A DNA stretch of 64,000 nucleotides, from the NCBI GenBank assembly GCA_016702305.1, contig JADJEH010000001.1:395797-459796 (forward strand), written 5' to 3'. Below the pieces are notes generated by a model. That model saw only the letters and a program-made list of their open reading frames with translations. It ran no database searches and was not told where the DNA came from. Each line of letters starts with the position of its first letter. The stretch's first letter is position 1. Both the position numbers and the translations under genes were made by a program. This DNA comes from a bacterium. GTDB lineage: Bacteria; Electryoneota; RPQS01. This document shows, piece after piece, positions 15,230-42,837 of the stretch.

Positions 15230-15424
15230 CTTGCGAATTGGCTTGCATTTTGCCACGGCAAGCTCCATAGGCATGCAGTTTCAAGTGCTATAAGCTCTAT
15301 AAGAAACATTGAGATAGACAGTTGGTAGCCCCTGAGGGTCTGTGTTCATTGCGAAGCGCTTGAGGAACAAAGACTTTCGTTTTGCCGGGGGTTGAGAATG
15401 TTAAAAATAGGCAAAACATTTTCC

Positions 15425-15455
15425 TTGACAAGTTGATTCTGAATGACTATATTTG
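15425..15455 (+). promoter_or_regulatory. Near-consensus promoter about 350 nt upstream of the giant ORF
   Basis: TTGACA (15425-15430), an exact 17-nt spacer, then TATATTTG (15448-15455), inside a 575-bp AT-richer non-coding region. Confidence 0.55.
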
Positions 15456-15804
15456 GGGAACTTTGACCAGCATAAGACTTTTTTGAACTTAGGTCAGACC
15501 CAATTTTATAAGTTCTTGATTTCCAGCATAGCCAAAGCACAGCCGCTCCCGCAAGCAGATGCTATTGCATTCTGCAAAACGGGGAGCTTGTGTTTTTTTC
15601 CTCAAGCTGGTTTGATTAACGACGGATGCGTTCATGCCAGATTCTAATCCCCCTTTCGATTTGAACAATCAGTTCATGACCACGCAAGTTATCCACAATG
15701 CCCACAGGGTGAACAACCCGCTGAGTGGGCATTCGGCATGCGTATCCGACGCAGCCCCTTCCCCACGGACTAAGAAGATTTCCCATATTCAGGAGAATCA
15801 CAGA

Positions 15805-15891
15805 ATGAGGTCCAAGACTCTTTTTGTGTGGCTGGTGAGTTCCATCAGCTTGATGCTCTGCCTGCTGACGCCCCAAATGGCATCGGCGCAG
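15805..15891 (+). other. Signal peptide of the giant protein
   Basis: MRSK, a hydrophobic core LFVWLVSSISLMLCLL, and A-S-A at the cleavage region. Confidence 0.7.
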
Positions 15892-18800
15892 ATCAACGTT
15901 GACCCCGAGGTTAACGCCTTATGTATCGAAGATCCGGCCCTGCCGTCCAACGGTGTCGTTGACGAGCTGACGGATCGGTTGCAAATCACCGTCCGCGCAG
16001 CGTACTCCGATATCTATTGCGATTCGGTACGCGCCGGTTTGGATCCGAGCCCTCCGGGACTGCCGCCGGGTTTGGAAAACCTCGGTGAGCTGTTGCCGCT
16101 CGTCCCCGTCGCCATCTTTAGCTGCCCGTCCGGTGTGACGGACTTGCTCTATGAGATGACCGTCAACGTGACGCTCGGTCAAGGTCTCAATGGAGCAGCT
16201 CTTGATAGCTGCTTGGTCATTGCTACTCTTACCTTCTTCCCCGGCGGTGCCAATGTGGACGCGGGAGACGTGGTGGGTACCGGTGTGACCTGGCTCGGTT
16301 ACGATGATGACGGCGAAGTCGCGATTCCAACGGTCTGTTTGGACTTCGGCTTCACGTTTATCGCGCCGTGTGACATTCGCTCCGGCTGCGCGCTGATCAA
16401 CTACCGCGAAGGCGGCGGTATCGCGTTTGACGGTATTGTGGCGATCGGCGACACGGTGTGGATGGATTCGACCGTAGCCGCGTCCATTGATACGATGGCT
16501 GCCGGTGACACGCTCGTTTGGGACGGTTCGGCGCTGACCTGTGATATCGCCGACGTCAACCTGTTCTACAACGATACGATTATCGTTGCCGAATGCGCGT
16601 GGGAAAACGGATTAGTGAATGCTTGCCACAACGACACCATCTGGCTGTACTACGTGCAGTGGGATGCAGCCGGCGGCGACGACTTCTTTGACGGTACCGT
16701 GGTGGATTCGGTCCCCTGCGTGCGCCCGATTGACAACTCGCCCCCGACATTGGACCAAGCGTGCATTGACTCCTGTACGATTACTCAGAACAACTATCTC
16801 GATAACGACACCATCGCCGGCTGCGGCGACGTGTTTGTTATCTGGATGAGCACGATTCAGAACGGCTTCCCAACCCGTACCGATCCCGATTGGAACTGCG
16901 ACGGTGACTCGGTGCTGGAAGACGTCTCCTTGGCGACTCCGTGGTATGTTGACTGCGATACCAATTCGCAGAACTTCGACGTATCGTGGATGGCTGTCCG
17001 CCTCCGTGACATCGTCCCGCTGGACAGCTTGTTCCCGATGAACGAAGATTCGATTGACCTGCTGTCGCTGGACAGCGTCTGGGTGTCTGCCCGATTTGGT
17101 ACGACGGCTAACCCCGGTTCGGCCAACGACCTCATGTACATTGAAATTCCCATTGATACCGTTTGGTGGGATTATGTTCAAATGTGCGTTCTGGAAGGCT
17201 TGATTGACGGCGACACCATTTACGTGCACTCCATTGACGACGCCGGCAACGCCTCGAACGCGTCACCGTTTGGTGACTCGGTTGGTACCTTGGTCGGCTG
17301 TGACGCCTGTTTGGACAATGTGCCGCCGGACCTACCGGGCAGCGACATCTATTGGTCGTACGACGGCGTTGACAACTTCTGCAACCAGCGCTTCTCGCCG
17401 TACGACAGTGCGCTGGCTACGTTCTACATTAATCTGTCGCCCGACTCGATCCGCTGGTACTTGGACGCGGTGGATTCGGTCTATGACACCACGAACTATC
17501 TTGATGTCCTTGAAAACGTCTACCTGATCGGTTTTGACGTACGGCAGATTCCTGACGACGATCCGGACACCCCGACGGGCGCTCCGATCACATTGCTGGA
17601 CTATTTCCACCCGATGGCCAAGCCGGATTCGATCAACTGGGATTGGCGTTCGCCGTACGTCCCGGGCATTGACTCGAGCGCCTGCTTCACCTGGTATGGT
17701 AAGGACGGTCCGGACAGTCTTGATCCTGATTTTGACTTCTTGTCTGACTACTGCCCGTGGGGTATGCTGGTCGGTATCACTGAAGCGCGTTATATGGACG
17801 CCGGTGGTTGTAACGCAGTCCTGGGCTCGGACCACGACGGCAGCACCAGCATCCTGGACGGCTACACGCAGCTGAATGCCCTGTATTCGGTTGTGGATTC
17901 CTGCTTCCCGACGACGACGATCACCTTTGATCTCGATACGCTGGAAGGCCCGGCGTTGGGCCTTGGCCCGGACTACGGTTCTGTTAATGATCCGTACCTG
18001 TGGACGAACGGCGAGAACTACCCGTTCTTGAAGTTCAAGGCGCGCCGCTTCTACACGCAGGGTATGATTGACACGTGCCTGGCTGAGCAGCTTTGCTACA
18101 CCGTCAAGATTGACTCGCTGTACACGCAAGGCCCTTGGCCGTTCGCTGCGGACTCCTTCTATATTAATGAGGACGACGCGATCAATGGTGGATCGGATAC
18201 CCGCACGTGCCGTCCGATCGAGTTCTTCTTTAATGACATCAACTCGGATACGATCAGCTTCGAATGGGAGTTTGACGGGCCGGGTGACACCGAGATTCCG
18301 GACGGTCTGTATTGCCTGTCGCTCGAACTTCAGGACAATGCCGGCAACGTCTTCGTCGGTGACACGATCTGCATCTGGAAGAACGGCCTGGGCCCGGCGA
18401 TTGACTCCGTGGCCGTGGTCAACGACAATCTCGATTGCACAACGAACTTCTTCATTGGCGAGTCGCTGTGCGTCTGGATTCAGACGGACACGACGGCTAC
18501 GGAAGTTCTGTTCGACTTCTCATGTATTCTGAACATTGACAGCGTGGCGCCGGATCAGGACACGGTCCTTGTGACGACCCCGTACGCGGCCACCAACACG
18601 TTTAAGCGTTGGTACGCTTGCCTGCTGATCCAGCCGGGTATGGTGGATTCGTCGAATACCGACCTGAACGACTACCGCATTAATCCGTACGAACCGGATT
18701 GCGAAGATGCGGGCGAGTACGGTATCATCAGTGTAATCGCCTATGACTCGGATGGCAATTCGACCGAAGCTACGCAAGATGACGGCACGTGCGTGATCGC

Positions 18801-21800
18801 CCTGCTCGGACCGAGCCGCTGCCCGCGCATTGTTGGCCCGATCGAGTTCTGGTACTACGATCCGGATACGGTGTTCTCGCTGGAAGCGGACATCAACGCC
18901 AACTACACCGATATTTTCAATTTCGACAATTTCGGCCCGATGCCTGATTGGAACGCATTCTCCCCGGGTTCGGTTGACTCGGCCGGTGCGTACAATTCGA
19001 TGACCAATCCGGCTCATGATCAGGTCCATGACTCGATCTGGGTGCGTTTGCTGATTGACACCCTGTCCATCACGCAGGCTGACAACTTCGGCGACCCGTT
19101 CGACGATGACGTTTACCATGATACCCTGGTGGTCGAGTTCCGTAATCCGGACAACTCGCGTTCGCGTTACGTGCGCAAGCCGTTGTTCCGCCCGGGTCCG
19201 ACGTGTACGAATTATGACGGCATCCCGCCCTGCCAGGATCCGCCGGACAACACGATCTACGACGGCCGTCTTGAACTGGACGAGCATGTCCAGGCCCTGG
19301 CCGAGTTCCGCTATATGTGGAACGGCACGTGGTTCGTGAATGCCGGTGCTGACAGCCAGATGCTGGTGCCGATCACTGGTCAGGACACAATCATTGTGGC
19401 CGCCTGGACGGTTGACGGCGACTCGATGGTGGATTCGATTTCGGTTGACTCGATCTTCTTCCTGGTCTGCGACACGACGTTTGCGGAGCTGGACGTTGAC
19501 AACGAAAATCCGGAATTCCTCGAATGGACCGGCATTGCGGCCGGCGTTCGCGAAGAAGATACGCATAGCACAGCTACGGTAGATAATATCGGCTGGGACG
19601 GCGATTGCGGTTTCCGCTACGCAGAAGGCGACACCTTCCAGCTCGTTGTGCGTGCCAGTGAACAGGTTCACTACGATTCGTTGGCCTATCCAAATACTGA
19701 CGGCTCCGACTATGGTGTCGGCGGTATCGGTGACTGGATTGAAACGGGTCAATGGCAGATCTCGCTTGTGGATAGCACGGCTGGTCTGCTGATTGAGAAT
19801 CCCGACAATCCGGGTACCTACGTTACGGTCGAATTGCTCTCGGTGACGCCGGATAGTCTGGCCAACAACGAGTGGCAGTACACCTTGGTGGGTACGCTGT
19901 CGAATCTGCCGGTTGATACATTCATCTATAATGCATGTTTCGTGATCCGCGGCGCGTGGGACCAGGGTGGTAACCCGGGTCGCTACAACGAGCCGTCGTT
20001 CAGCGATGCATTTGAAGATGACAGCTTCGAAGATACAACCTTCTGTCTGCATTTGATTCCGTGTGATCCGTGGGCGGCCGGTTGTCCGGACGTCTATGGG
20101 CCGGACAATATCCTGGGTTGGATCGCGCCGGAAGATACGAACATCACGGTTTGCGCGACGATTATCGAAACGTGCGAACTGACGATGTGCACGCCGGGCG
20201 TGCGTGAGGATTCGCTGCGCGTGGTCGAAGGCGACTTCCAGCGTATCACGGACGACCCGAATCCGTGGATTCTCCCGGATTCAGTCGGCGACTGGTTCAT
20301 CTACTATGGTCCGTTCGGCGACAGCCTCGGCTGGGCCCGTATGTACTATTGGCAGTTGCGCGCTGACTCCTCGGATCTGGCCACTATCTGGTGCGACGGC
20401 GACTTCCTCGACTTCGAGATTCGCTTCGTCAGCTGGGAAGGTGTTCGCGATTCGATGACGTTTGACGAATGCGTGCAGGTTGACGTGAACGAGCCGCGCT
20501 GGGTTGAGTGGAATCTGTATGACAGCACGGGCACGATCCTTGATGAATTGGACGGCGCGCTGCCGTGCGCTCAGCCTGACCAGACGATGACCCTGATGGG
20601 TTGCGTGTGGGATAGCGGTGTTGATTGCGAAGACGGTGAAGGTATCGGCGTTGACACGTCCATGATCTGGGCTGACCTGTCCCAGTTGCTGCAAGACGCG
20701 GCCGCTGACTCGGTCGAGCCGGATTGCGTGGTTGTCCAGGGTATCTACACAGGCGTCTATCCGTATGTCGGACCGCCGGTGCAGATTTTCGACAATAGCA
20801 CGTCAACCGCGGAAATTAATGACCCAGATGCTGGTGACATTCTCGATGTCAATGTGACGATCGGCGATCTCCAGCATACCTACGTCGGTGACTTGGCCCT
20901 TATCCTTGAGAGCCCGAATGGAACGCAAGTAACCCTCGTGAACGATGAAGGTGGCGACGGCAATAACTTTGTCGGTGTGATCTTTGATGACGAAGCGGCT
21001 ACTGATATTACGTCCATCAGCGCTTCGGATGATCCGTTTACTGGTTCGTACTATCCGGAAGGTTCGCTCAGTGACTTCGACGGTGAGAATCCCAACGGTG
21101 TTTGGACGCTCTATGTCAATGACGACACTGGTGTGGATGAAGGCTTCCTCAATAGCTGGTCGCTTGAGATCACCTATCAGAACGGACCGGAACTCAAGGT
21201 TCAGGCGTTCTGGACGTTCGTACCCGACTCGCAGTTCTTCTGTATCAATACGGTGGATCCGTGGTTCCGCTTCCATGCGGCCCATGACATCATCGGTCAC
21301 CATGACCGTGAGCTGTACATGCAGGATACGCTGAACTTCTGCAGCGACTGCGTTCCGCCGTACATCTATAATGCCGAAGTCTACTGTGAATGCGACACGT
21401 TGCTCGCCGGTGTGGATCCGGAAGAGGAACAGGGCGACCTGCACTTCTTGAGCACGGGCTCAGATGTCCGCATGGTGGTCAACATCGCCGACGTGGACAG
21501 CGATTCGAGCCTCGGCTTGGCCTACGACTTCATGTGGGCAGACCTGTCGTCCATTGACACGACACTTAGCTGGGAGCAGGGTGCCTGCTTCTGGTCAACT
21601 GAGACCGAAGCTGGTGACACGACCGTCGTGATTTGGGGTGATGTGACTGACTGTGCCGCGCCGGGCTTCTGCGCGGGCAACACGCCGATCGAATTGAACG
21701 CGGTCTATAACAATGGCGAAACGATCTATGTCCGCTTTGCCTTGGCCGACAGTGCCGGCAATGTTGACACCGTGTTGTATGCGGTCGGTGTTTACGACTC

Positions 21801-36800: not shown

Positions 36801-39024
36801 CGTGCTGTTCAACATCGGCGATGGCAACCAGACCCTGACCAAGGGTATGTCCGCCGCGTCGCGTGTAACGGGCAAGGGCAACGTTGCTTCCAAGAATGAA
36901 GCCTCGATCGGCCGCGATGAGCGCGAGACGCTGGACGACAACGGTTCAGGTATCATTACCGACCGCGTGTGGTTCGTCGTCGTCCCGCCGCGTGGCGAGG
37001 TCCTGCGCTACGAAGACGAAGAAGACTTCATCGAACGTACACGCTCCAGCGCCAAGGTCGTCCTTGTGGATCCGATCGCCGGCGTGTGGACTGTGAACGC
37101 GTACGCTGAAGACTGCGTGGGCAACCTGGCCACGTGGACCTGGACATTCCGCGTCCTGAGCACCGGCCCGATCGTTGAGTTCGGCACGGTGGAAGACGGC
37201 AGCTGCCAGTACAATGGCTTCTGGAACCCCGACTTCCCGCTGGACTTCACGGCCACGGTTCAGGAGAACGACGGCGCCAACGTCCGCAACGGCGACATCG
37301 CCGCGCACTTCGTCGGCCTCTATGACAATGACGGTCAGATCACCGAATACGATCTGACGGCGAACGTATCGCTCGACATCAACCCGGCGTACGACAACGG
37401 TAATACGAACCAGACGTTCACGGTGAACGGCACAGCGACCTTCGGTGACTTCGGCGGTCATGGTACCCCGAATGACATCCGCATCGTCCTGACCGCCGGT
37501 GACCAGTACGGCATGGTTACGGAAATCGTGCAGACGTGGGTCGTGGACGAGACGGCCCCGGTGGTTCAGGTCATCAGCCCGCTGGATAGCAGCGTGGTCA
37601 ACGGTGATCTGCCTGTGACGATCAGTGCCCACTTCTTCGACGACGAAGAATTCAGCGCCGTCGGCATGCCGGGCAACGACATGCTGCTCGATAAGAACGT
37701 CACTCCGGCGACGGGCTTCATCGGTACCGGCAACAAGGGTGAGAAGGGCGATAAGGTCAGCACGATCAGCACCACCAAGCTAGACCTTGGCGCCTGGCGT
37801 GATGCGCTGTCCCGCGGCTTCTCGAGCCTTGACGGCAACAGCGGCGTGGATCCGCAGTGTATCGAGATGTTCCTCCACAATCACTCGACGGGTGTTCGCA
37901 CTGAGCTGACGCCGGAATCGGTGATCAATGGCGGCATCATTACCTGGTCTGGCAACCTTGAAGACGGTGCCTACAGCGTCATCCTGACGGTCTGTGACTA
38001 CGTCTGCAACACGAGCAGCAAGGTCTGGAGCTTCCAGGTCGTTGGCTTCGAAGGCTGCCTGAGCGAAATCTACTTCCTCGAACCGTTCCATGTGTCGGCC
38101 ATGCCGCATTGCTTCGAAGCCAGCTTCGAATGTGATCAGGTTGACCGCAGCACGGTGACGATGACGCTGGAAGGTGCCATGCTGGTGGACGACCAGCTTG
38201 TCTGGGCCCCGATCGTGGTGGAAGCGCCGGTCACCTTCAGTGAAGGCGTCGCTTCCTACTGCGCTAACTTTGACCTCACTGGTCTGCAGAGCATCCGCGC
38301 CACGTTGAACGGTTCGTTCAGCGGTGGTGCCCCGATGGCGCCGATCACACAGGTCTATACGGTAGACACCGGTGCCCCGATCTTCACGAATGTTGATCCG
38401 GCTTCCGATCCGGATAACCCGCTGGCCATTGGTGAAGCCCTCAACTTCCGAGTTGACTTTGCTGAAGTCGGTACGGTTGGTCTGGATCCGGAAAGCATCC
38501 GCATCTGGTGGACGACTGAAGATGGTGGCGCGATTGAGGGTACGTCGAACGTCAGCATCGCCGGCAACGGCCTGACGGGCTACGCAACCCTGGCCCTCGG
38601 CCCGCAGACAGCTGGCGTGTACTACCTGCACGCAGACGTGAGCGACCTGGCCGGCAACCGTGCGACCGAGCAGTGGATGTACCGTGTCGGTCACGAGCAG
38701 ATCAATCTTGGTGGCGAAACGTACAACTATCCGAATCCGTTCACGAAGGAAGACGGTCACACGACCTTCGTCCTGCCGATCGAACCGGGTTCCGGTGACG
38801 GTGCGTACGTCAGCATCATGATCTACGACTTCTCGGGCCGCTTCGTCGCGAAGGTGTTCGATGGCGTACTTGCCGATAACAACGCGTCCATTACGTGGGC
38901 CGGTACCAACGACAAGGGCGAAGAAGTCGCCAACGGCGTGTACCTTGCCAACGTTAAGGTCACGGGCGATGGCGTCACCTTGAACAACATCGTGAAGGTC
39001 GCCTACAAAAAGGCGAGCAACTAA
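15805..39024 (+). CDS. Giant secreted surface protein (about 7,739 aa) with T9SS-type C-terminal sorting domain
   Basis: The frame is uninterrupted from 15634 to 39024 (track: 7796 aa). I place the start at ATG 15805 because AGGAG lies 9 nt upstream and the N-terminus MRSKTLFVWLVSSISLMLCLLTPQMASAQ is a signal peptide. Inside are two P-domains, at least 24 D-x-x-x-P module boundaries paired with D-x-A-G-N motifs, D-x-D-x-D-G loops, and a C-terminal Por-tail/FlgD-Ig-like domain. Confidence 0.9.
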   Translation: MRSKTLFVWLVSSISLMLCLLTPQMASAQINVDPEVNALCIEDPALPSNGVVDELTDRLQITVRAAYSDIYCDSVRAGLDPSPPGLPPGLENLGELLPLVPVAIFSCPSGVTDLLYEMTVNVTLGQGLNGAALDSCLVIATLTFFPGGANVDAGDVVGTGVTWLGYDDDGEVAIPTVCLDFGFTFIAPCDIRSGCALINYREGGGIAFDGIVAIGDTVWMDSTVAASIDTMAAGDTLVWDGSALTCDIADVNLFYNDTIIVAECAWENGLVNACHNDTIWLYYVQWDAAGGDDFFDGTVVDSVPCVRPIDNSPPTLDQACIDSCTITQNNYLDNDTIAGCGDVFVIWMSTIQNGFPTRTDPDWNCDGDSVLEDVSLATPWYVDCDTNSQNFDVSWMAVRLRDIVPLDSLFPMNEDSIDLLSLDSVWVSARFGTTANPGSANDLMYIEIPIDTVWWDYVQMCVLEGLIDGDTIYVHSIDDAGNASNASPFGDSVGTLVGCDACLDNVPPDLPGSDIYWSYDGVDNFCNQRFSPYDSALATFYINLSPDSIRWYLDAVDSVYDTTNYLDVLENVYLIGFDVRQIPDDDPDTPTGAPITLLDYFHPMAKPDSINWDWRSPYVPGIDSSACFTWYGKDGPDSLDPDFDFLSDYCPWGMLVGITEARYMDAGGCNAVLGSDHDGSTSILDGYTQLNALYSVVDSCFPTTTITFDLDTLEGPALGLGPDYGSVNDPYLWTNGENYPFLKFKARRFYTQGMIDTCLAEQLCYTVKIDSLYTQGPWPFAADSFYINEDDAINGGSDTRTCRPIEFFFNDINSDTISFEWEFDGPGDTEIPDGLYCLSLELQDNAGNVFVGDTICIWKNGLGPAIDSVAVVNDNLDCTTNFFIGESLCVWIQTDTTATEVLFDFSCILNIDSVAPDQDTVLVTTPYAATNTFKRWYACLLIQPGMVDSSNTDLNDYRINPYEPDCEDAGEYGIISVIAYDSDGNSTEATQDDGTCVIALLGPSRCPRIVGPIEFWYYDPDTVFSLEADINANYTDIFNFDNFGPMPDWNAFSPGSVDSAGAYNSMTNPAHDQVHDSIWVRLLIDTLSITQADNFGDPFDDDVYHDTLVVEFRNPDNSRSRYVRKPLFRPGPTCTNYDGIPPCQDPPDNTIYDGRLELDEHVQALAEFRYMWNGTWFVNAGADSQMLVPITGQDTIIVAAWTVDGDSMVDSISVDSIFFLVCDTTFAELDVDNENPEFLEWTGIAAGVREEDTHSTATVDNIGWDGDCGFRYAEGDTFQLVVRASEQVHYDSLAYPNTDGSDYGVGGIGDWIETGQWQISLVDSTAGLLIENPDNPGTYVTVELLSVTPDSLANNEWQYTLVGTLSNLPVDTFIYNACFVIRGAWDQGGNPGRYNEPSFSDAFEDDSFEDTTFCLHLIPCDPWAAGCPDVYGPDNILGWIAPEDTNITVCATIIETCELTMCTPGVREDSLRVVEGDFQRITDDPNPWILPDSVGDWFIYYGPFGDSLGWARMYYWQLRADSSDLATIWCDGDFLDFEIRFVSWEGVRDSMTFDECVQVDVNEPRWVEWNLYDSTGTILDELDGALPCAQPDQTMTLMGCVWDSGVDCEDGEGIGVDTSMIWADLSQLLQDAAADSVEPDCVVVQGIYTGVYPYVGPPVQIFDNSTSTAEINDPDAGDILDVNVTIGDLQHTYVGDLALILESPNGTQVTLVNDEGGDGNNFVGVIFDDEAATDITSISASDDPFTGSYYPEGSLSDFDGENPNGVWTLYVNDDTGVDEGFLNSWSLEITYQNGPELKVQAFWTFVPDSQFFCINTVDPWFRFHAAHDIIGHHDRELYMQDTLNFCSDCVPPYIYNAEVYCECDTLLAGVDPEEEQGDLHFLSTGSDVRMVVNIADVDSDSSLGLAYDFMWADLSSIDTTLSWEQGACFWSTETEAGDTTVVIWGDVTDCAAPGFCAGNTPIELNAVYNNGETIYVRFALADSAGNVDTVLYAVGVYDSLPPIVDFIYTIGDDSIRGYVSPGDDHIHVFADINGYAADLVSAPEHVWADFSQFQCDSASKSWYDTVYANYVEDLGGGNFRAWWGWYPGSWTGDPFDLTYLIPGDTTSLPWDTLSACESCSTWEIGAEGTYDSLWVYVTDAACNAGQHFNVWEASGCDSTTPGLDSVWVWGNNCEVGWISSTPLDSGHIEVWAWMDTTFNELIDTLMIDSLQVNLIQLGSPRWDHTNWSTPEFFGGWPVYGTDPTPDSTKWEIIEVDGRNRLVGKWLWLTADGMGDCEQVIVPVKSIRQTGLGGSHGYYMDVEYGYARVDTTRPVIYDMRVHSNTTTIAETTWVTPNYPLCVEFWAYDTSCDPEETDHIGFDLTHGEGGPGPWISFQCGGILDSLWTWDTTAFEVTWYNGWNGVDPIDLDSASRADSICIKFTGQPVYDDSCNAIDLDDLEGCVTAYIEDCLSNPAVPVTKTVTTDDRPPMFVNSLPWGDYTIATGFPGDPDINGIDSVLVLQNSNYGLDWDSTMFVYVIVDNAPGDTLMSWEKTYIDFTGFMNDALQYPDSIYYNIDGNHRDSILWVIPLYDDMGGGALFNTNIVSDRYWWHLYLSDSLCNRASFYCMDLDSAVSFTIQNWTSPTTGMLLLCDSNTVAGSDTDFVDMFNMDLWNNEKVSPDEAKENLYKIWYSDDSGFWNWYSHEDVNQTRFFVFVEDTVLQSDDIDNDNDGLFDETGEGVDFYTADLRINEFPQVGHVDSMNVEGVWINYLWFADNFSEGRYDVKLYISDIYGHRDTLACGDFALTFYEDETCPYGTDIYAYDADETDTNLVTWCWNGAFTGSVSPNGFTADDSIFVGDDFDSLVVFLYDPIILDQYARGSGVDFDTTTTVDSTNWNAGLASSVRLLDPNGAEVAFVQVYDTSDGFAYDSKPIYLIDPTGNALEGHPDGEYTINVVALDNMGNSCEYNWTFVLDRTCPDIADFFVTHPGQIVPQADLFTSWDYVELRANVFDSLGVFENVRFDYAFDANRDGEVDAYTYWQTRNIWVSGSSSEDGHPEWPYAAYWNIRNLTWNSEDTLGLPPVNPDSCLNTWFVRVHAWDKFGNYCADTITVHITDDIAPLAYISNVDGDDTPQSALIECFEPNVDTDSLVELRAFDFQGGLYDPLPGDTTFAVFSYSNPETDLYFDSSDPYETTIQVTEDFSLLDVNVVLENLDGPYQGCLYVELESPNGTIVTLMDDQGEWYWEWTEADIVLDDEAFMGMEFYGDEFADNDAYWPYENLSVFDGESSLGTWTLRVWDDCGYSGELGGWGLVLTERPIGGLATYQWFDLAKGMFQFKYFEAPGVYTPGNADPATGWVTIQTPGQDSVTYRQPGSEDFVAMWNIAGLQSHQYNLRFLSADVCDNVDALNTPVITVRIECDTTAPLALICFPTPDLCVTNMHCDTTAWVPVQSTAPIMSDVDSIAYFFVDSLSVPGLGIHQFIGGTNSADSVVSGWAYYHSTAWNTDNLLSGWYWLYAVAYDDAGLYDTDPIWTRVFVDNTAPMVTECWIGDYNSGDMFASIQTVGEGNYFYLRANAEDNIGLDHNCGISGVQFQFLDRFGNWKNLESANDWYEAWGADVYCDWNYGFVYEPSSNGYYELGVYFQDFGNSPLDSVRFRAYAIDNIEGEGWGQNNTQGDANRDCNLDRDLTCGEEICCSAIEIRDALPEGTNLWCFNHAWFQWGLPQYSAPTTPIFDGDKFSVCNYQTPLDTMLFVANVHEDVEDEWLMYFKYWRADGSTDTFDIPNDFTLNPALPRNADGAVVLESTWDSVYVVWTGARAWLDSADAADGLEYARWDFVAYVEDLTGNQEPWWSQNTCFINTFCPPNTPITDVTYVTNDVADPENRVRVTEEVSWQDDVTDTVEVLYNRTTDYGSNDPEALVQFYVDADAIRNCHADSFDVFNVELWQLADNGELEALCDEGELVDFDYFSSFKAWDQFPPDMGTEQYEFGVYFDNSYAPGTYNFAVVVNWVGYDGVELDTLNEGDTDCDGSVEESDFTRIDLVVRIVNVNEPQVVFCYPNYGDVCGAHNTVPLSANDVSDPNYFSGDIDTVWFQRWDGDSWVAVTDAITGRSYDTQPGTATVRFELDEKEVPGMAGWYYNMSGNNTDPVYSWYADRDLFPDVAVYIWELDQFFPMADGGAGFWTADIYLNHGDDACYNYSFVIDANDNNIWENPGTDRWVDDPRNLDWEDQDPIAYDRCSDDQLDSYESYETAFSTLCLCEYVINFNSITVGDGHHEFRTVVGWHDDVAYHVIENPAPGDSLHVFFVDNDEPGATHDIEFDNFWLNGGRCDTEDFAYFVTDIQPVDGDYRLVVEDICAVIYQVSLTSNPQQDSSWRNVYTVYSNDDMGWTEAWPGEWEAYNPLEDDIDNDGDGLVDETYDVQAGDGRGEENTLFWSRSIVTDHCGNTYCTNAESLWVDVSEPRACVELIGGIEPGVNGNDVIIVPDSRDLEIVAVNQDYAGFDPSILGVFQYRTLNPIGPWTNIQADEASNDTTRHDGDTLRATWDLLTYFEETGNDPEGWYQLRVIAIDTVNNTDMCDNDVCYVTIRLNDNQPAARIAIHQIISEGEEVASSCTTDSSYYMQTADDPYCIQAVFAPTNIDTGLASITFQYAEVSGDVVSNWRNIETIYDPINNGLNGDTTQCVYFQPQPEDVGDQEIFWIRAIVEDYNGNDTSDAVVLYIDALPPTGAGTAVTTAEVATACGDRCWLDITPGAAMINMLFDADELSGEFNEDEVWLTAVREDSNYWYNFGAMTRSDDDEWYFDFGGDLCDYWRDRQGDAGLDYGCYIFTVHFTDCQGNEDSVQVSTTCDGQTTNLVCIDCYPAVPEHTDIQSLSFQGYDCVEEDWTTLYDNILDGTTEIGGEQAVSVAGVIPSYEQDIWYMVLYVESEDAGVAATAVDTFWWNPTYNSHEYPGWNISWNLADTTDEGAAMYPSGYYRVWARAHDAICQIEPIEMLDEFWVHVDHAEPVADITEVNGEPVTEENTWIEINAGEDNPATLWIEWTDGLNPDDSTQTNNIVELWCKNIWHPNQADAWTQCGTIPSPCNPHYAELDLTNITCGDSLHVIAIAQDRWENGDLDVERVMSAFDEGHAINIYIFDTTPPSSMVWSVGLTEEPWCDDDRDQGVNGLWIVDQQTNTVSVGALGDIHDIWLQAFTTIGDDWPSINGDVERVYFEYSFDGTTWFEIGVDEEDSEPCAWEGEQPNPWWDGVDHDIFWSVVWDVSGMAGDVWVRSWAQDECGNSEEMESYIVSFDVMAPMAQVFVWENGVNVDQLETCDNWTEPQIGDSVERFTMLTVGACADEVEGDAYGAHWFIKRAEDHPLEMWSWCYFGDDSTGPFSVNNVDLWHNDCPAPQPGLWYDVAVLTTDQAGNELTWTQFLNYGQGMTVEEKWAWLMANGYVKRFYVADTQAPTAHDLQATPDCTPDSSVIFLHGDITLTAEVDDEDVEAVTFAFLEVGSNGPWTVIERASREHGIQSIQGPNGEFVLAEGTWNTELLNGTYWLGAFAEDNFGNMDGDLSMGAEGRPAQALWQVNIDNEAPEALIVEVWRDGVPVTNIERGAEHTFVINASDNFGLRQVQLYYRAQNGEPAALALIDTDGNFPYSFNWTAPTTMVVTWQYDFLAVATDLCEWTDMYDAQGSYLVDWTATVVDEEANLSITTIGGYPAEETPHVNGENVCIEVSSEPNLDYVRFVWIRGGDTTEIETIQNPVGTIYWNLCGWDVTTIDEGPAQLCAIGSADLGGDLVTMAQDCRNIVIDHSLTWTLTDNMPDSHGLVGGYCSLTRPLAIDGNPDDIWVRFNNQLTDAGLDTVWFEWKNAADPNDDTFWSGIGYAYQDAGVTGNWIYSWDAYDYFEGSCLTISLRAVLSDNAVPTSNLAYVLFADSVRVDNCPPDVQFTNVNGDMSPEGTVVPWGEIVNMVATAQDIFGNGGNSDVDSVCFYGGNTVDEVDLISCDTQGPLWSAQVATTDIGPNNNYYLRVVAWDEAGNCSEHAITIYVEDSQFQRACIVGFDADNEFACNDYLYAVTDDCDTNWTAQVQFQISLNQGGSWIPLADAVNTRVDQCNEWLGWHLWQITLEFDEYPANAWFRAVAWDESGNVDPNAAIWRRQDVTVTEEVQIWTPDWVRVPSNGEQQPWVLTTLEDYTENCLIEAGVVCIEPEAGSSFYAGELPLNTRPCQLEDEDGQITVFTSNKVQQGDNIFTQITTYSMDIHEANYQGGSNGTLVSEDGALEVTIPAWGTGWAGSLWFESYLPSQSHSLVPAYQYYYTLISNVVEIQSDDLDDLDIVQPASSFRMHFDNSLLPENAEEWQVVVAYWNWDDEDESGQYNGMWQEWGITYNDRDLENGIVDFQWTPDWDVSDLTSVCPDRARFAVFITSIRPISENVHLNNGGDCDPSYDESGLNYYNGVPVTDCNPQWWVVLGQGEYPPTPDRVDVWLDGIRIVNDGEPAYTEGWYEENQCDGYDVFIIDYDEITGIMAVSFNPDANSCGPWFGCLTQGTHTIQYYLDDRPTNVTPFYVDLTPPTAHTEPTYIGDVSITLWADLVDRESGIDTVSVYLDLANCGVENSQYVHEVTAEAMTFEPIYEDEALIGYRASVTVQWDGLIDNIFYDWYDEETGYYFGTDCPLTLCAHWHVYNNVCNYNDETQDYRYTVDIVPPVITPVSPIGAAIDDDGDGTPNEDPVDCSNNDGDFFWTHDWGWSDRYDEDPINFAADTFNCGERLPIQGSISDWGRCCYGAAGVNLSGVQFVIDGVAFTAADTTNEGLNFFINSPGQNDFVFNFGGPTSGEAADMFYTPGPHSVAMFVPDNAGNIGTTDAQSITWNYYVACPGPAVDFNEGACGTWFNPEYDSENPVEFNFIVTTVASAPIAPNGISYTVSTVPDGIVVSGPTTVDPAGEDTVEVEVMLDGSFPDGQTGLAVTVETRNIHFVAGGDNNGYNMSAQTYTADGCEPVETAHFPATDDSVQNEGNVVVEVQYNDDCNGVLFNIGDGNQTLTKGMSAASRVTGKGNVASKNEASIGRDERETLDDNGSGIITDRVWFVVVPPRGEVLRYEDEEDFIERTRSSAKVVLVDPIAGVWTVNAYAEDCVGNLATWTWTFRVLSTGPIVEFGTVEDGSCQYNGFWNPDFPLDFTATVQENDGANVRNGDIAAHFVGLYDNDGQITEYDLTANVSLDINPAYDNGNTNQTFTVNGTATFGDFGGHGTPNDIRIVLTAGDQYGMVTEIVQTWVVDETAPVVQVISPLDSSVVNGDLPVTISAHFFDDEEFSAVGMPGNDMLLDKNVTPATGFIGTGNKGEKGDKVSTISTTKLDLGAWRDALSRGFSSLDGNSGVDPQCIEMFLHNHSTGVRTELTPESVINGGIITWSGNLEDGAYSVILTVCDYVCNTSSKVWSFQVVGFEGCLSEIYFLEPFHVSAMPHCFEASFECDQVDRSTVTMTLEGAMLVDDQLVWAPIVVEAPVTFSEGVASYCANFDLTGLQSIRATLNGSFSGGAPMAPITQVYTVDTGAPIFTNVDPASDPDNPLAIGEALNFRVDFAEVGTVGLDPESIRIWWTTEDGGAIEGTSNVSIAGNGLTGYATLALGPQTAGVYYLHADVSDLAGNRATEQWMYRVGHEQINLGGETYNYPNPFTKEDGHTTFVLPIEPGSGDGAYVSIMIYDFSGRFVAKVFDGVLADNNASITWAGTNDKGEEVANGVYLANVKVTGDGVTLNNIVKVAYKKASN
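20782..21180 (+). other. Proprotein-convertase P-domain 1 (no adjacent subtilase domain)
   Basis: ILDVNVTIGDLQHTYVGDLALILESPNGTQVTLVNDEGG...FDGENPNGVWTLYVNDDTGVDEGFLNSWSLEITY follows the PF01483 pattern as I remember it. Confidence 0.75.
23914..23964 (+). other. Acidic D-x-D-x-D-G calcium-loop-like motif 1
   Basis: DDIDNDNDGLFDETGEG. Confidence 0.5.
25327..25701 (+). other. Proprotein-convertase P-domain 2 (divergent)
   Basis: LLDVNVVLENLDGPYQGCLYVELESPNGTIVTLMDDQG...VFDGESSLGTWTLRVWDDCGYSGELGGWGLVLTERP. Confidence 0.65.
28957..29007 (+). other. Acidic D-x-D-x-D-G calcium-loop-like motif 2
   Basis: EDDIDNDGDGLVDETYD, nearly the same as motif 1. Confidence 0.5.
35866..35928 (+). other. Acidic D-x-D-x-D-G calcium-loop-like motif 3
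   Basis: DDDGDGTPNEDPVDCSNNDGD. Confidence 0.45.
38722..39021 (+). other. T9SS C-terminal sorting domain (Por-tail / FlgD-Ig-like beta-sandwich) of the giant protein
   Basis: YNYPNPFTKEDGHTTFVLP...YVSIMIYDFSGRFVAKVF...ITWAGTNDKGEEVANGVYLANVKV...VKVAYKK. Confidence 0.75.
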
Positions 39025-39037
39025 TCAATAACCCGGT

Positions 39038-39074
39038 GGGTGGGGAAGGGCAACCTTCCCCACCCCTGAGTTTT
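39038..39074 (+). terminator. Strong hairpin after the giant ORF; possibly a leaky terminator or RNA-stabilising element
   Basis: A 12-bp perfect GC-rich stem (gggtggggaagg / ccttccccaccc) with a GCAA loop. The TTTT run starts only 5 nt after the stem, so it is not a textbook terminator. Confidence 0.4.
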
Positions 39075-39130
39075 CCCAATTCCGGAAGATGAAATACTTG
39101 AGAATAGCCGATAGGACAGGAGGAAGGGAT

Positions 39131-40576
39131 ATGACATCCCGAATTCGCAATACGGCGCTGGGCCTGTGCATGCTGATGCTGTTCGGTGTCTCTGCCGCCA
39201 ACGCGCAAAACTACGCCGCACCGTTCCTGCGGATGGGCGTCGGGGCGCGAGCGATGGCGATGGGTACCGCCCAAACCGCCGTTGCCAAGGACGCGACCGC
39301 GGCTTACTGGAACCCGGCGGCGCTACATTGGCTCCACAAATTTGAAGTGGCGCTGATGTACACTGGCGGTCTGGAAGCCGATCGAAACTACAATTACATC
39401 GGTGCATCGCTGTGCGCGGAGAAGATTGGTACCTTCGGCCTTTCTTGGCTCAACGCAGGCATCACCGGAATCGGTCAGTATGACGAAACCGGGGCCAAGA
39501 CCGGCAGCTTCGACGTGGGCGAAAACGCCTTCCAGTTGAGCTACGCACGTGGCCTCGGCAAGGGCTTCTCGCTCGGTTTGAGCGCGAAGTACTTGCAGGA
39601 AGACCTTGCCGATAACGACGGCTGGGGTCTCGATGCAGGCTTGCTGTTCCGCGCGTACGACGAACTGCAGTTCGGTTTTATGATGCGTGACGCCGCCGGT
39701 GAATACGGCGACGACAACGTGCCTTATGAAGCCCGCTTCGGTGTCGGCGTGAACCCGTGGAAGGGTGTGACTCTGACGAGTGACATCAACAAGATCGAAG
39801 ACGAAGACGCTTCGCTCGACCTCGGAGGCGCGTACGATTTCGAAGTCAGCGACAACGTGAGCTTCTATCTGGCCGCCGGTGTCAACGATATCGTTGAGAC
39901 GGATCAGGCCAATAGCGGTATCACAGCCGGCTTCGGTTTCGGATTCAAGAGCTTCGGCATTCAGTATGCCTACGTGGAAGAGCCGCAGGCGTTCTTGAAT
40001 GAGAATCACCGCATCTCGCTGAATTTCTTCTTCCAGGAGTGCAACGAGCTGACGAGCGCGATGGGTACGCTGAAGCGCGCCCGCCGCGAAGAAGCTATGG
40101 TGTGCAAGAACGACGGCCCGAAGGAATTCGTGCATCGTTACATCTTCGAAGGCAATCCGTCGCTGAAGCTCTCGCTTGAGCTGCTGCGTCCGGAACAGAA
40201 GGATTCGATGGAAACCGTGTGGATGGAAACGGGCGGCGTCGTTAGCTTCCCGGGTATCAATTTCGCCACGGGTTCCGCGGAAATCACCGACGAGTTCGCA
40301 CGCGTGCTCGACGGTGCTTCCAAGCTCATCAACGAGCATCCTGAAATCCAGCTTCTCGAAGTCCAAGGCCACACTGATAACACCGGTTCGGATGCGATCA
40401 ACAATCCGTTGTCGCAGGCCCGTGCCGATGCGGTGCGCAACTACTTGATCTCGCGCGGTGTTGATCCCAGCCGACTGGTGGCCAAGGGATATGGTTCGAC
40501 CAAGCCTGTTGCCAGCAATGCCAACGAGCAGGGCCGTTACCAGAACCGCCGTATTGACCTCGTGCGCATTCGGTAA
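39131..40576 (+). CDS. PorV/PorQ-family outer-membrane beta-barrel fused to a C-terminal OmpA-like peptidoglycan-binding domain
   Basis: ATG 39131 has GGAGGAAGGG upstream and gives the signal peptide MTSRIRNTALGLCMLMLFGVSAANAQ. The N-terminal FLRMGVGARAMAMGTAQTAVAKDATAAYWNPAAL matches my memory of the PorV/PorQ (UPF0164-like) signature, and an amphipathic strand pattern runs to about aa 300. The C-terminus INFATGSAEITDEF..LEVQGHTDNTGSDAINNPLSQARADAVRNYLISRGV..AKGYGSTKPVASN..NRRIDLV is a classic OmpA_C motif. Confidence 0.75.
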   Translation: MTSRIRNTALGLCMLMLFGVSAANAQNYAAPFLRMGVGARAMAMGTAQTAVAKDATAAYWNPAALHWLHKFEVALMYTGGLEADRNYNYIGASLCAEKIGTFGLSWLNAGITGIGQYDETGAKTGSFDVGENAFQLSYARGLGKGFSLGLSAKYLQEDLADNDGWGLDAGLLFRAYDELQFGFMMRDAAGEYGDDNVPYEARFGVGVNPWKGVTLTSDINKIEDEDASLDLGGAYDFEVSDNVSFYLAAGVNDIVETDQANSGITAGFGFGFKSFGIQYAYVEEPQAFLNENHRISLNFFFQECNELTSAMGTLKRARREEAMVCKNDGPKEFVHRYIFEGNPSLKLSLELLRPEQKDSMETVWMETGGVVSFPGINFATGSAEITDEFARVLDGASKLINEHPEIQLLEVQGHTDNTGSDAINNPLSQARADAVRNYLISRGVDPSRLVAKGYGSTKPVASNANEQGRYQNRRIDLVRIR

Positions 40577-40598
40577 GCGTTACTACCTTTGATACTGT

Positions 40599-40637
40599 GT
40601 CGAGGAGTGTTGCGGAAACCGTCCGCCACTCCTCGAC
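40599..40637 (+). terminator. Extended hairpin after the PorV-OmpA gene, no T-tract
   Basis: gtcgaggagtg..(gcgga-aaccg-tccgc)..cactcctcgac: an 11-bp outer stem plus a 5-bp inner stem, followed by tcactccatgag rather than a U-run. Confidence 0.3.
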
Positions 40638-40675
40638 TCACTCCATGAGTTCTCGTTTTAACCTGTGAGCAGGCC

Positions 40676-42025
40676 ATGAAGAGAATCGGTTATGTGTTAA
40701 TCTCCGCTGTCGCGGTGCTGGCGGTTTATGCACTGTCACTTGCGCAGTTGGAATCACGCAATGCTTCGGCTAAGTATCTCTTGCGTGTCATGGACGGCCC
40801 TGATGCGCGGGCTTACTTTGGTTCCGCGGTTGAAGGCGCCTATGCCTGGACCGGCGGCAACAAGCTGTATGCTGTGTCGTACACGGGCGAAAACGCCGGA
40901 CCCGTGTCGCGCGGCGCCGTGCATTTCTATGACGGTCTGCTGGCCAATGATCCCGTGCTGACCATCCGCGGACAGGAAGACGGCGAACTGTTCGGCTCTT
41001 CGATGTCCACCGGCGATTTCAACGGTGACGGTACTCCCGACTTGGCGATTGCCGCTGAGGGTGGCCAGGGCACCGGGAGCAAGCCGGCCGGTAAAGTCTA
41101 TCTTTATCTTGGCGGCGCGAACTTCGGATCGGCTGCCGCGGTCATCACCGTCGGCGAGAGCAAAGACTCGTTCGGCCGTTCGATTGACATGACGCGCGAC
41201 GTGAACGGCGACAGCTTTGCCGACCTCGTCGTGGGAGCTCCGCACTCCGCCAAGAACGGTGCGACTGCGGGTCGGGTCTACGTGTATTTCGGCAATGCGA
41301 ACGGCACGGCCAAGAGCCCCGATCTCGAAAGCAAGCTTGGTACGCTGAATGATCTTTATGGGACCTCGGTCTCAAGCGGTGATATTACCGGCGATGGCCA
41401 AGCTGATATCGTTGTTGGCGCTCCGCATTACGGCACGGAAGCGACGTATTACGGCGCTGTGTACGTTTTCAAGGGCGGCAAGGGCATAGATGTATCCAAG
41501 CCTACAAGGCTCTACAAGGGCGAACTGACCAGCTTCCAGGACCAGTATGGTTGGTCCACGGCAATCGTCGCGGATCAGACCGGTGACGGCGTGGCGGAAT
41601 TGGTCGTGGGCGCGCCTCAGTTCACCAGCGGTGGCAAGCAGTTGGGAAAAGTCTACGTGTATCACGGTGGCGCGACTCTGCCGGACAACGCCAACGCGAC
41701 ATTCACAGGTGGGGTAGAAGCCGGGCGCTATGGCGAACGCGTGTTTGCGCTGGGCGACCTGAACGGCGACGGGAAGGGTGACTGGGCGGCGCAGGCGGCG
41801 AATGCTAATCAGGCACGCGGCGTGGTCTATTTCTACTATGGTGGCTGGGAGACGGACTTCTACCAGTTCTCGGGTGAGAACATCGCTGATGCGGCCGGGA
41901 ATAGCGTCTCGTCGTTCGGCGACTTAGACGGCAATGGAGCGCCCGATCTGGGCGTTGGGGGCCGCTGGTGGGATCAGGATGTCATGGAAAATGTCGGGCG
42001 TGTTTATCTGCTTAGCGTTCAGTAG
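40676..42025 (+). CDS. Secreted FG-GAP repeat (integrin-alpha-like seven-blade beta-propeller) protein
   Basis: Signal peptide/TM MKRIGYVLISAVAVLAVYALSLAQ. Repeated blades: FGSSMSTGDFNGDGTPDLAIAA, FGRSIDMTRDVNGDSFADLVVGAP, YGTSVSSGDITGDGQADIVVGAP, YGWSTAIVADQTGDGVAELVVGAP, YGERVFALGDLNGDGKGDWA, AGNSVSSFGDLDGNGAPDLGVGG. Confidence 0.85.
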   Translation: MKRIGYVLISAVAVLAVYALSLAQLESRNASAKYLLRVMDGPDARAYFGSAVEGAYAWTGGNKLYAVSYTGENAGPVSRGAVHFYDGLLANDPVLTIRGQEDGELFGSSMSTGDFNGDGTPDLAIAAEGGQGTGSKPAGKVYLYLGGANFGSAAAVITVGESKDSFGRSIDMTRDVNGDSFADLVVGAPHSAKNGATAGRVYVYFGNANGTAKSPDLESKLGTLNDLYGTSVSSGDITGDGQADIVVGAPHYGTEATYYGAVYVFKGGKGIDVSKPTRLYKGELTSFQDQYGWSTAIVADQTGDGVAELVVGAPQFTSGGKQLGKVYVYHGGATLPDNANATFTGGVEAGRYGERVFALGDLNGDGKGDWAAQAANANQARGVVYFYYGGWETDFYQFSGENIADAAGNSVSSFGDLDGNGAPDLGVGGRWWDQDVMENVGRVYLLSVQ

Positions 42026-42070
42026 GCGGCCTGCTGGAATACGAAGTCCGAATTTAGAATTTGGATATTG

Positions 42071-42096
42071 GCGCGGCTCCTCGGGGTCGCGCTTTT
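42071..42096 (+). terminator. Rho-independent terminator after the FG-GAP gene
   Basis: gcgcggctcc-tc-ggggtcgcgc forms a stem of about 9 bp (two G-U pairs) followed by TTTTCTATT. Confidence 0.6.
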
Positions 42097-42194
42097 CTAT
42101 TGTAGAATTTTGGGCTGGAAGGTGGGAATGACGAACGCGGGAACGGCTGGCGGTTCTCGTAGCTCGAACCGTCGCTACCCTTCGTTCGATTAGA

Positions 42195-42575
42195 GTGCGC
42201 GCGACACGAGCTTGCAAATTTGGTCAGTTGATTCACGTTGATCACTTGCAAGGCGGATCGCGCTACTTCCGCTGGAATCCGCTCGATGCAGAAGAAGATC
42301 ATCCGAGTGTACCTGAGAAATTCTCCCTCTCCGCCTACCCCAACCCCTTCAACCCCACAACTACCCTCTCCTTCACGCTGCCGCGCAGCGCGGAGGTGGC
42401 GCTGACGATTCGCAATGTGCTGGGGCAAGAGGTTGAGAGCGTGAGCATGGGAAGAATGAACGCAGGCGAACACCGTTGTGCCGTCAACGCCGAGCGCTGG
42501 GCCTCGGGCATCTACTTTGCCTCCGTCGCGGCGGGGGAGTGGGTGCAAACGGTCAAGGTAGTCGTGCTGAAATGA
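42195..42575 (+). pseudogene. Orphan T9SS C-terminal sorting domain (gene remnant or stand-alone CTD)
   Basis: The last ~85 codons (from about 42312) read SLSAYPNPFNPTTTLSFTLPRSAEVALTIRNVLGQEV..NAGEHRCAVNAERWASGIYFASVAAGEWVQTVKVVVLK, a textbook Por-tail. The preceding ~40 codons have no signal peptide or SD and look non-protein-like. Confidence 0.6.
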
Positions 42576-42813
42576 CAGGTGATTAATACGGGACGATTCG
42601 GATTGTCAGGCCGGACTTGACGCATATTCTCCCCAGCAAGCTGAGCGCTCCGGCGAAAAGCGAGGAGGTACCGGCCACAGAAACGCGACCCCGTCGTCGT
42701 TTCGATGGCCACTTGTTCAGAAACTTCCGAGGGTCTCTTCTGTTGAACATGTTGAAGTGCGTATAACTTGTCATATCGCAAATACAGGTATAACAATTGC
42801 AAAGCATCTTACA

Positions 42814-42837
42814 GGGGGCAACGGGCAGCCCCTTTTT
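42814..42837 (+). terminator. Short GC hairpin plus T-run
   Basis: ggggc-aacgggca-gcccc followed by TTTTT. It sits immediately before the glycan-cluster promoter. Confidence 0.45.

Follow-up and report, generated by a model that had tools for sequence, protein, structure and literature searches.

A candidate cargo-plus-anchor unit of a giant secreted protein and a PorV/PorQ-family barrel fused to OmpA_C in uncultured bacteria

How a protein of nearly a megadalton might be kept on the surface of a Gram-negative cell, and whether the genes lying next to such a protein belong to it, are the questions raised by a locus in a 64,000-nucleotide stretch of contig JADJEH010000001.1 (assembly GCA_016702305.1, positions 395,797 to 459,796), referred to here as the window. 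The locus contains a gene for a giant secreted protein ending in a C-terminal domain (CTD) resembling type IX secretion system (T9SS) sorting signals, a gene for an outer-membrane barrel of the PorV/PorQ family that carries an OmpA_C domain, and a gene for an FG-GAP propeller, with an orphan CTD further downstream. A preliminary description of the sequence had interpreted the three genes and the stray sorting domain as a secretion and anchoring module dedicated to the giant cargo. The three genes are present on the same strand, with small corrections to their coordinates, and are separated by the 106 nt (giant to barrel) and 99 nt (barrel to FG-GAP) that had been reported. The interpretation favoured here, with a probability of about 0.58, is that the first two genes constitute a cargo-plus-anchor unit, in which the giant would be exported by Sec, would cross the outer membrane in a CTD-dependent manner of the T9SS type, and would remain docked through its uncleaved CTD on a PorV/PorQ paralog that is stapled to the cell wall.

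The giant is encoded in an open frame of 7,796 codons (15634..39024, + strand), with its likely start at ATG 15805, which is preceded by an AGGAGA Shine-Dalgarno sequence and opens a Sec signal peptide (MRSKTLFVWLVSSISLMLCLLTPQMASA, followed by Q). Codons 1-57 of the frame (15634-15804) are probably untranslated, and the length of 7,739 aa obtained for the product of 15805..39024 agrees with public gene calls on near-identical contigs. The protein has a mass of about 0.8 MDa and a very acidic composition (D 11%, W 3.7%, K 0.7%). Searches against Pfam return two P_proprotein domains and weak Big_* hits that cover less than 10% of the length, and self-BLAST detects no internal repeats at E below 1e-5. 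For a bacterial protein as long as 7,700 aa, this combination of near-zero Pfam coverage and absence of BLAST-detectable repeats is unusual. Colinear orthologs in relatives measure 7,452 and 7,379 aa, with one of 2,279 aa in a basal member, and the presence of a VWA domain in the 7,379-aa ortholog (L086/L014) hints at an adhesive function, the giant presumably being an adhesin. A role as a PorU-type sortase was considered and rejected, as no Peptidase_C25 or other catalytic domain is found in the giant at E up to 0.5; it is thus not a PorU, and only its C-terminal cassette is PorU-like.

This cassette (38302..39021, + strand) consists of an Ig-like beta-sandwich followed by the type-A-like CTD (about 38728..39021). 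The last approximately 130 aa of the giant match positions 952-1082 of the NCBIfam PorU model with an E value of 1.4e-12, and the C-terminus also scores above the cutoff for FlgD_ig (30.9 bits, cutoff 27). The type B model CHU_C is matched below its cutoff (15.1 bits, cutoff 27), and both TIGR04131 and PorP/SprF are absent from the hidden Markov model (HMM) match lists of the cargo and the barrel. An AlphaFold2 (AF2) model of the last 240 aa, built on a shallow alignment of 6 sequences, shows two beta-sandwiches at a mean predicted confidence (pLDDT) of 80, and its top Foldseek match in the Protein Data Bank (PDB) is PorU of Porphyromonas gingivalis (6za2, E 3e-9). A homology search with the same 240 aa returned 5 proteins only, probably owing to the word prefilter. 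Giants of different phyla are similar only over their last 225 aa or so, and within the lineage of the window the last 95 aa are the best-conserved portion of the last 1,000, conserved in one example at 81%, where the regions upstream reach 59-68%. The end motif of the CTD follows the type of barrel encoded next to it, with KVAYKK accompanying OmpA-fused barrels, KVVLWRE those fused to thrombospondin type-3 (TSP3) repeats and OmpA_C, KIGV the free barrels, and K(L/I)GVIH those with TPR domains. The CTDs of the distant giants score above the TIGR04183 cutoff (24.0-31.4 bits) and give matches to the C-terminal end of PorU. As the cassette is the only part shared across phyla, and the CTD at its end is the best-conserved tail and closes with a motif that varies with the barrel, these comparisons of sequence suggest that the CTD is the link between cargo and barrel.

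The barrel gene (39131..40576, + strand) has GGAGGA ahead of its start and encodes 481 aa beginning with a signal peptide. The preliminary description had proposed a PorV/PorQ-like barrel with an OmpA_C domain and had named a generic porin as the outcome that would speak against it. The protein scores 133.5 bits against the NCBIfam family model PorV_fam (NF033709; cutoff 90), matching model positions 3-324 of 326, and also passes Pfam PorV (28.3 bits, cutoff 27) and OmpA PF00691 (78.7 bits, cutoff 27.2), which places it in the PorV/PorQ family rather than among generic porins. Its scores are below the equivalog cutoffs of the set NF033710/NF033711/NF052325, being 59.6 bits for PorV (cutoff 250), 74.2 for PorQ (220) and 93.3 for PorV2 (325), and on these scores and its own clade in the barrel tree it is assigned to a distinct PorV/PorQ subfamily. 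The AF2 model, built on 20 orthologs and of moderate confidence (pLDDT 69.6), comprises a barrel of 14 strands (aa 69-304, nt 39335..40042), a disordered linker of about 50 aa (aa 305-353) and an OmpA_C domain with an OmpA-like fold (aa 354-481, nt 40190..40573). The top Foldseek matches of this model are the PorV chains of SprA translocon complexes (8gl6_F and 6h3i_F), with TM-scores normalised to the target of 0.59-0.62 compared with 0.51 for FadL. In the OmpA_C domain, which matches PDB OmpA_C domains at E values down to 5e-25 in a sequence search, the GHTD...R motif is invariant across the 20 orthologs, and the conserved residues D416 and R431 suggest that it binds peptidoglycan. This domain is also the most conserved stretch of the locus, at 76-97% identity. 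The match to NCBIfam PorE (NF052230) reaches 64.2 bits against a cutoff of 600 and is confined to the OmpA_C part, and the protein has no lipobox; it is not a lipoprotein of the PorE type, with its TPR, beta-propeller, CRD and OmpA_C domains. Approximately 65 full-length orthologs of the barrel-OmpA protein, 56-95% identical, occur in uncultured bacteria, where databases name them "OmpA family protein" or "PorV/PorQ family protein".

The association of the two genes was followed across 76 loci obtained from a contig scan with one genome per species. The closest relatives carry the labels Calditrichaeota, KSB1 or plain "bacterium", and one bears the isolate name HK-STAS-AABM5-4, which points to the candidate phylum AABM5-125-24 of the Fibrobacterota-Chlorobiota-Bacteroidota (FCB) group as the lineage of these orthologs. 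The earlier argument that the genome is not one of the classical Bacteroidota is in agreement with these relatives, which are metagenome-assembled genomes (MAGs) labelled Calditrichaeota, KSB1 and AABM5. Ten "binchicken" loci (L007, L008, L011-L014, L017, L018, L021 and L027) are titled "uncultured Alphaproteobacteria bacterium" and L016 Candidatus Puniceispirillum; these titles look wrong, given the labels of closely similar loci. Each of the 19 orthologous loci with sequence available on the upstream side shows a gene with the same CTD that ends about 100-180 nt ahead of the barrel gene. The same holds for 12 of 12 distant loci of the Eisenbacteria type (L029-L040), where the barrels are 32-40% identical and a CTD-ending giant stands just before each of them. 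These giants exceed 3,200 aa, the open reading frame (ORF) running past the 10-kb flank, and two of them are called in full in public records, at 5,053 and 3,554 aa. The genes downstream of the pair are unrelated housekeeping genes. The pairing is also found in MAGs that several independent sources label Elusimicrobiota (L042, L058, L063 and L070), as well as in L064, L041, L043 and L044. Activated sludge, sediments and groundwater are the sources of the uncultured phyla that bear the pair.

When 65 barrels are arranged in a neighbour-joining tree, one clade unites the OmpA-fused barrels of this lineage, the TSP3-OmpA-fused barrels of the Eisenbacteria type and free barrels of 311-320 aa, and every one of its leaves (37/37) has a CTD gene upstream. 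The barrels of the Poribacteria type form a separate clade and are without a CTD neighbour. The two kinds occur together in the Eisenbacteria MAG JADJQY01, which encodes a giant-linked barrel (L036) and a general-type barrel without a CTD neighbour (L059), the latter falling in the Poribacteria-type clade. What is attached to the barrel also varies between lineages: Eisenbacteria-type barrels (L030, L031, L036 and L040) carry thrombospondin type-3 calcium-binding repeats together with OmpA_C, those of Elusimicrobiota (L042, L058, L062 and L070) carry a C-terminal TPR domain of about 200 aa in place of OmpA_C, and other members of the family consist of the free barrel alone, which is about 300 aa long and finishes at the beta-signal. 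The suggestion that parts comparable to those of PorE have been re-assorted at this locus fits well with these exchangeable appendages (OmpA_C, TSP3-OmpA_C and TPR) and with a propeller encoded by a separate, optional gene.

The FG-GAP gene (40676..42025, + strand) encodes a 449-aa integrin-alpha-like beta-propeller, which scores 145.6 bits against FG-GAP and matches integrin alpha propellers at E 1e-15 in a PDB sequence search. The protein has a Sec signal peptide, lacks both a lipobox and a CTD, and is predicted to be periplasmic. Seventeen orthologous loci carry the gene, at 43-78% identity; it is absent from the two basal and most divergent orthologs (L025 and L087) and from all other phyla examined. 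By its distribution it is classed as a lineage-specific accessory and not as part of the core, and the view of the three genes as a unit gives way to one of a conserved pair. The conserved unit is the giant CTD protein gene followed by the barrel gene, with the third gene specific to the lineage.

Taken together, the domains of the pair suggest a load-bearing chain that would run from the cell wall through the outer-membrane barrel and the CTD to the approximately 0.8-MDa giant. Export by Sec is indicated by the signal peptide of the giant, which would then cross the outer membrane by a CTD-dependent route of the T9SS type. In P. gingivalis, PorV and PorQ keep PorU and PorZ at the cell surface (PMC8545088), and by analogy the PorU-like cassette would stay uncleaved and dock on the barrel encoded downstream. 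The periplasmic linker and OmpA_C domain of the barrel would in turn bind peptidoglycan. Type B cargo proteins provide a related precedent, as PG1035 binds PorP and SprB binds SprF, both of them PorP-like barrels, and PorP in turn binds PorE, an OmpA_C protein that attaches to peptidoglycan (PMC9143113) and is composed of TPR, beta-propeller, CRD and OmpA_C domains (PMC12773672); moreover, the gene for a cognate shuttle is located immediately downstream of that for its cargo (PMC12618676). The barrel-OmpA_C protein would merge in one polypeptide the role of PorP in holding the cargo and that of PorE in anchoring to the wall. Since a barrel stapled to the wall cannot diffuse freely, a fixed docking site is favoured over a mobile shuttle in the manner of PorV, and the barrel is more likely a fixed anchor. 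Of the secretion and anchoring module first proposed, the dedication to one cargo is supported by the tie between the barrel and a giant CTD gene across phyla, whereas the fusion to a peptidoglycan anchor shifts the emphasis from secretion shuttle to stationary anchor. As a speculation, the FG-GAP propeller may act on the contact between OmpA_C and peptidoglycan, as the TolB propeller does on Pal.

A number of observations weigh against the cargo-plus-anchor reading. The giant CTD passes TIGR04183 by a margin of 1.2 bits (24.2 bits, cutoff 23) and falls below the cutoff of Pfam Por_Secre_tail PF18962 (13.1 bits, cutoff 27). None of the T9SS core genes SprA/Sov, PorK/L/M/N and PorU is found in the 64-kb window by Pfam and NCBIfam scans of essentially all of its genes, the same scans find no PorZ or PorT there, and the neighbours of the module in the window are housekeeping genes and a polysaccharide cluster. 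The docking of the giant CTD on the barrel is proposed by analogy, and the dedicated status of the barrel paralog is deduced from the Eisenbacteria MAG JADJQY01, no other PorV-family gene of the present genome being among the 76 loci. The hairpin that follows the giant gene (39038..39065) is scored as terminator-like in a terminator scan and may end transcription, such that giant and barrel would not form one operon. Finally, the downstream sugar genes, which encode a nucleotide-sugar dehydrogenase and a UbiA homolog, are as syntenic as the pair within the AABM5-like lineage. Because of this, synteny within the lineage says little by itself, and the argument rests on the comparison across phyla. 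In that comparison the adjacency of giant and barrel persists where every other neighbour is different, and together with the CTD gene upstream of all 37 members of the barrel clade and the membership of the barrel in the PorV/PorQ family, rather than among 8-strand OmpA proteins or porins, this brings the explanation of the locus as unrelated neighbours close to refutation. According to that explanation the barrel-OmpA protein would be a tether or porin, the FG-GAP protein would have no connection to it and the adjacency would reflect inherited gene order; it draws on the annotation of the barrel as "OmpA family protein" in its sources, on the equal synteny of the polysaccharide genes and on the terminator-like hairpin between giant and barrel, and it is considered very improbable.

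Two further explanations accept that the giant and the barrel are functionally connected and differ as to the machinery, and both are judged unlikely without being as remote as that of unrelated neighbours. The barrel-OmpA protein could be the PorV of this lineage, serving all type A cargo and standing beside the giant as porV stands beside porU, an adjacency in Bacteroidota that provides a precedent. Its passing of the PorV_fam model and the lack of a second family member of this genome in the comparison set are consistent with such a general shuttle, but the barrel scores far under the PorV, PorQ and PorV2 equivalog cutoffs, a peptidoglycan-stapled barrel is ill suited to shuttling, the giant without Peptidase_C25 is not a PorU, the tail motif of the CTD co-varies with the type of barrel, and the Eisenbacteria MAG has a separate paralog of the general type. 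The other explanation dispenses with the T9SS, the pair of CTD protein and barrel inserting or holding the giant alone or with machinery other than SprA and PorKLMN, and such a pair could be the ancestral or minimal form behind the shuttle and attachment parts of the T9SS. It would account for the occurrence of the pair in Elusimicrobiota-labelled MAGs and Eisenbacteria, when a review places T9SS genes in FCB phyla only and reports them absent outside these phyla (PMC11285876), and for the absence of any T9SS core gene in the window or beside any pair inspected. However, no route is known by which a 14-strand barrel of the FadL/PorV type could let through a protein of 2,000-7,700 aa, and other proteins with type A CTDs are encoded by relatives within the lineage (L088), which fits a general CTD sorting system and is an indirect hint at a T9SS. 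In its broadest form, equally doubtful, this explanation would make the pair with its variable anchor an ancient and self-contained unit for anchoring, and perhaps export, that extends across FCB and non-FCB phyla without SprA/PorKLMN, as a precursor or stripped-down relative of the T9SS. The wall-anchored docking of one giant cargo therefore remains the preferred interpretation of the pair.

The promoter-like site and the terminator that had been described as bounding the genes are both present, at slightly refined positions. The candidate sigma-70-like promoter, TTGACA-17-TATATT, lies at 15425..15453 (+ strand) with 11/12 consensus matches and implies a leader of about 350 nt ahead of the giant gene; in a consensus scan, 3 promoter-like sites are observed in the region compared with 0.9 expected. 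The 575 nt upstream of the giant gene (15230-15804) are AT-rich, and the G+C content around the locus is 55-60% with no compositional break. The intrinsic terminator, with a 10-bp stem followed by the U-tract TTTTCTATT, is located at 42070..42093 (+ strand) and closes the barrel/FG-GAP unit. As it is the only clean terminator and comes after the FG-GAP gene, this gene and the barrel gene are probably co-expressed. Co-transcription of all three genes through weak hairpins had been thought plausible, and the U-tracts after these hairpins are indeed poor; for the giant and the barrel it has become less certain, as the hairpin between them itself appears terminator-like.

This post-giant hairpin (39038..39065, + strand) is GC-rich, with 12 bp, a loop of 4 and the tail CTGAGTTTTC, and begins 13 nt past the giant stop. 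A hairpin of 11-15 bp is found at the same place, 5-12 nt past the stop, in 16 of 16 loci folded, including those of the Eisenbacteria type (the window, L007, L009-L013, L015-L017, L026, L028, L030, L031, L036 and L039), with Z-scores of -2.7 to -9.6. The structure is kept while the sequence of the stem is unrelated from locus to locus, and the U-tracts that follow are poor throughout. The second intercistronic hairpin (40599..40637, + strand), between barrel and FG-GAP genes, has an 11-bp stem (GTCGAGGAGTG/CACTCCTCGAC) and a 17-nt loop, and 10/13 relatives share the sequence of its stem core, CGAGGAGTG...CACTCCTCG, the remaining three having a different stem at this position. The 5' arm of this hairpin resembles a Shine-Dalgarno site, which is unusual for a plain terminator. 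An Rfam scan of the whole window gives no family match, so the intercistronic hairpins do not belong to known RNA families; they are most simply read as attenuators or 3'-end stabilisers and probably tune the expression ratios of the three genes. Just ahead of the barrel start there is in addition a highly conserved block, CGATAGGACAGGAGGA(A)GGGATATG, at 39106-39140, and a small hairpin, GGGAU-AUGNN-AUCCC, which recurs in most orthologous loci that were inspected, has the start codon of the barrel in its loop. This start-codon hairpin may be an element of translational control.

The orphan CTD had been listed as a component of the module, an assignment that is not retained. Its ORF (42195..42575, + strand) contains a domain at about 42333..42566 that passes both TIGR04183 (35.1 bits) and PF18962 (36.8 bits). 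The ORF has no signal peptide, in-frame ATG or Shine-Dalgarno site, is uncalled in the public annotation, and is missing from this locus in every other species compared. In a 94% identical strain variant the 5' boundary is the same and the stop codon is lost. The database relatives are all fragments of 88-176 aa, lacking signal peptides and located on short contigs or in frameshifted MAGs. A stand-alone protein resembling PorA was considered and rejected, given the fragmentary relatives and the lack of a plausible start in the window copy. By these features the orphan CTD is classed as a species-specific 3' remnant of a type-A CTD cargo gene and lies outside the module. The slot between the FG-GAP gene and the sugar-dehydrogenase gene in which it resides (42026-42906) spans 880 nt in the window as against 155-300 nt in most relatives, and is thus some 600-700 nt longer. 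At L028 the corresponding slot (13836-16026) holds a 578-aa DNA methyltransferase instead; the barrel gene of L028 is split over three frames, by either assembly errors or pseudogene decay.

The cluster for surface polysaccharide that follows, conserved beside the module in all relatives of the lineage, contains a UbiA-family gene (44227-45129) which passes the NCBIfam equivalog model for decaprenyl-phosphate phosphoribosyltransferase (256.7 bits, cutoff 234). This enzyme carries out the first step toward the lipid-linked arabinofuranose donor and is best known from mycobacteria. The other NCBIfam names in the cluster are generic, comprising a nucleotide-sugar dehydrogenase, a TviC-like epimerase, a PseC-like aminotransferase and an exopolysaccharide (EPS) priming transferase, and with such names a linking-sugar pathway of the Wbp or anionic lipopolysaccharide (A-LPS) type could not be established. 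At the opposite end of the window, positions 3-968 (- strand) hold the N-terminal portion of a gene cut off by the window edge, which contains AGEYWLDSDPGAGN and has no Pfam match.

The proposed unit would offer a testable answer to the question of how a near-megadalton protein stays on a Gram-negative surface under mechanical load. The presence of the pair in Elusimicrobiota, for which the T9SS is not described, raises the further question of how far CTD-based sorting reaches beyond Bacteroidota. Recognition of the pair could also improve annotation, as the barrels are at present often named only "OmpA family protein" and the giants "hypothetical" or "FlgD".

Among known systems, the closest parallels in components are the PorZ-PorQ and PorU-PorV pairs of P. 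gingivalis, in which a surface protein keeps its CTD and is held by a 14-strand barrel of the PorV/PorQ family (PMC8545088), as would be the case for the giant. The cassette of the giant is similar to that of PorU by both HMM and fold, and the barrel is of the same family as PorV and PorQ. Unlike PorU and PorZ, the cargo has 7,739 aa and is neither a sortase nor a lipopolysaccharide (LPS) carrier. The barrel scores below the equivalog cutoffs of its family and bears a fused OmpA_C domain, the two genes are strictly adjacent, and the hosts are phyla other than Bacteroidota. In gene arrangement the locus resembles SprB-SprF of Flavobacterium johnsoniae, where the gene for a very large adhesin is followed by that for its own outer-membrane barrel partner, and SprF and other type B partners bind their cargo (PMC12618676, PMC9143113). 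In contrast to that system, the CTD here is type-A-like and the barrel belongs to the PorV/PorQ and not the PorP/SprF family, so that the module would work like a type B cognate pair while standing outside that class. SprB also moves along the surface, whereas an adhesin held by a wall-stapled barrel would be fixed in place.

The PG1035-PorP-PorE system of P. gingivalis provides the same order of connections, from CTD protein to outer-membrane barrel to OmpA_C peptidoglycan binder (PMC9143113, PMC12773672). It differs from the present locus in that the barrel here carries OmpA_C in its own polypeptide chain, the propeller is an optional FG-GAP protein encoded on its own and not of the WD40 type, and the Elusimicrobiota relatives have TPR fused to the barrel. 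A functional parallel from a different secretion route is AtaA-TpgA of Acinetobacter sp. Tol 5, in which the gene for a giant adhesin is followed in the same operon by that for a partner with an OmpA_C-like peptidoglycan-binding domain. TpgA ties the membrane anchor of AtaA, a trimeric autotransporter of the type Vc route, to the cell wall. The combination of a giant adhesin and an OmpA_C wall-anchor partner is common to both systems; AtaA-TpgA has no CTD and no PorV-like barrel, and its secretion is unrelated.

The preliminary description had been unaware of any account of this arrangement, and likewise none of the papers searched describes the fusion of a PorV-family barrel to OmpA_C or TPR, or the pairing of such a barrel with a giant type-A-like CTD protein. 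In current models of the T9SS, all type A CTDs use the general shuttle PorV, and private barrels of the PorP/SprF kind serve type B cargo only. That a cargo can have a barrel partner of its own and a wall anchor is known in principle, while the family of the barrel, the type of CTD, the fusion of barrel and wall anchor, and the host phyla are new. The locus and its relatives suggest a third arrangement, in which a private PorV-family paralog would serve one enormous type-A-like cargo and, being hard-wired to the cell wall, would combine roles that P. gingivalis spreads over PorP and PorE.

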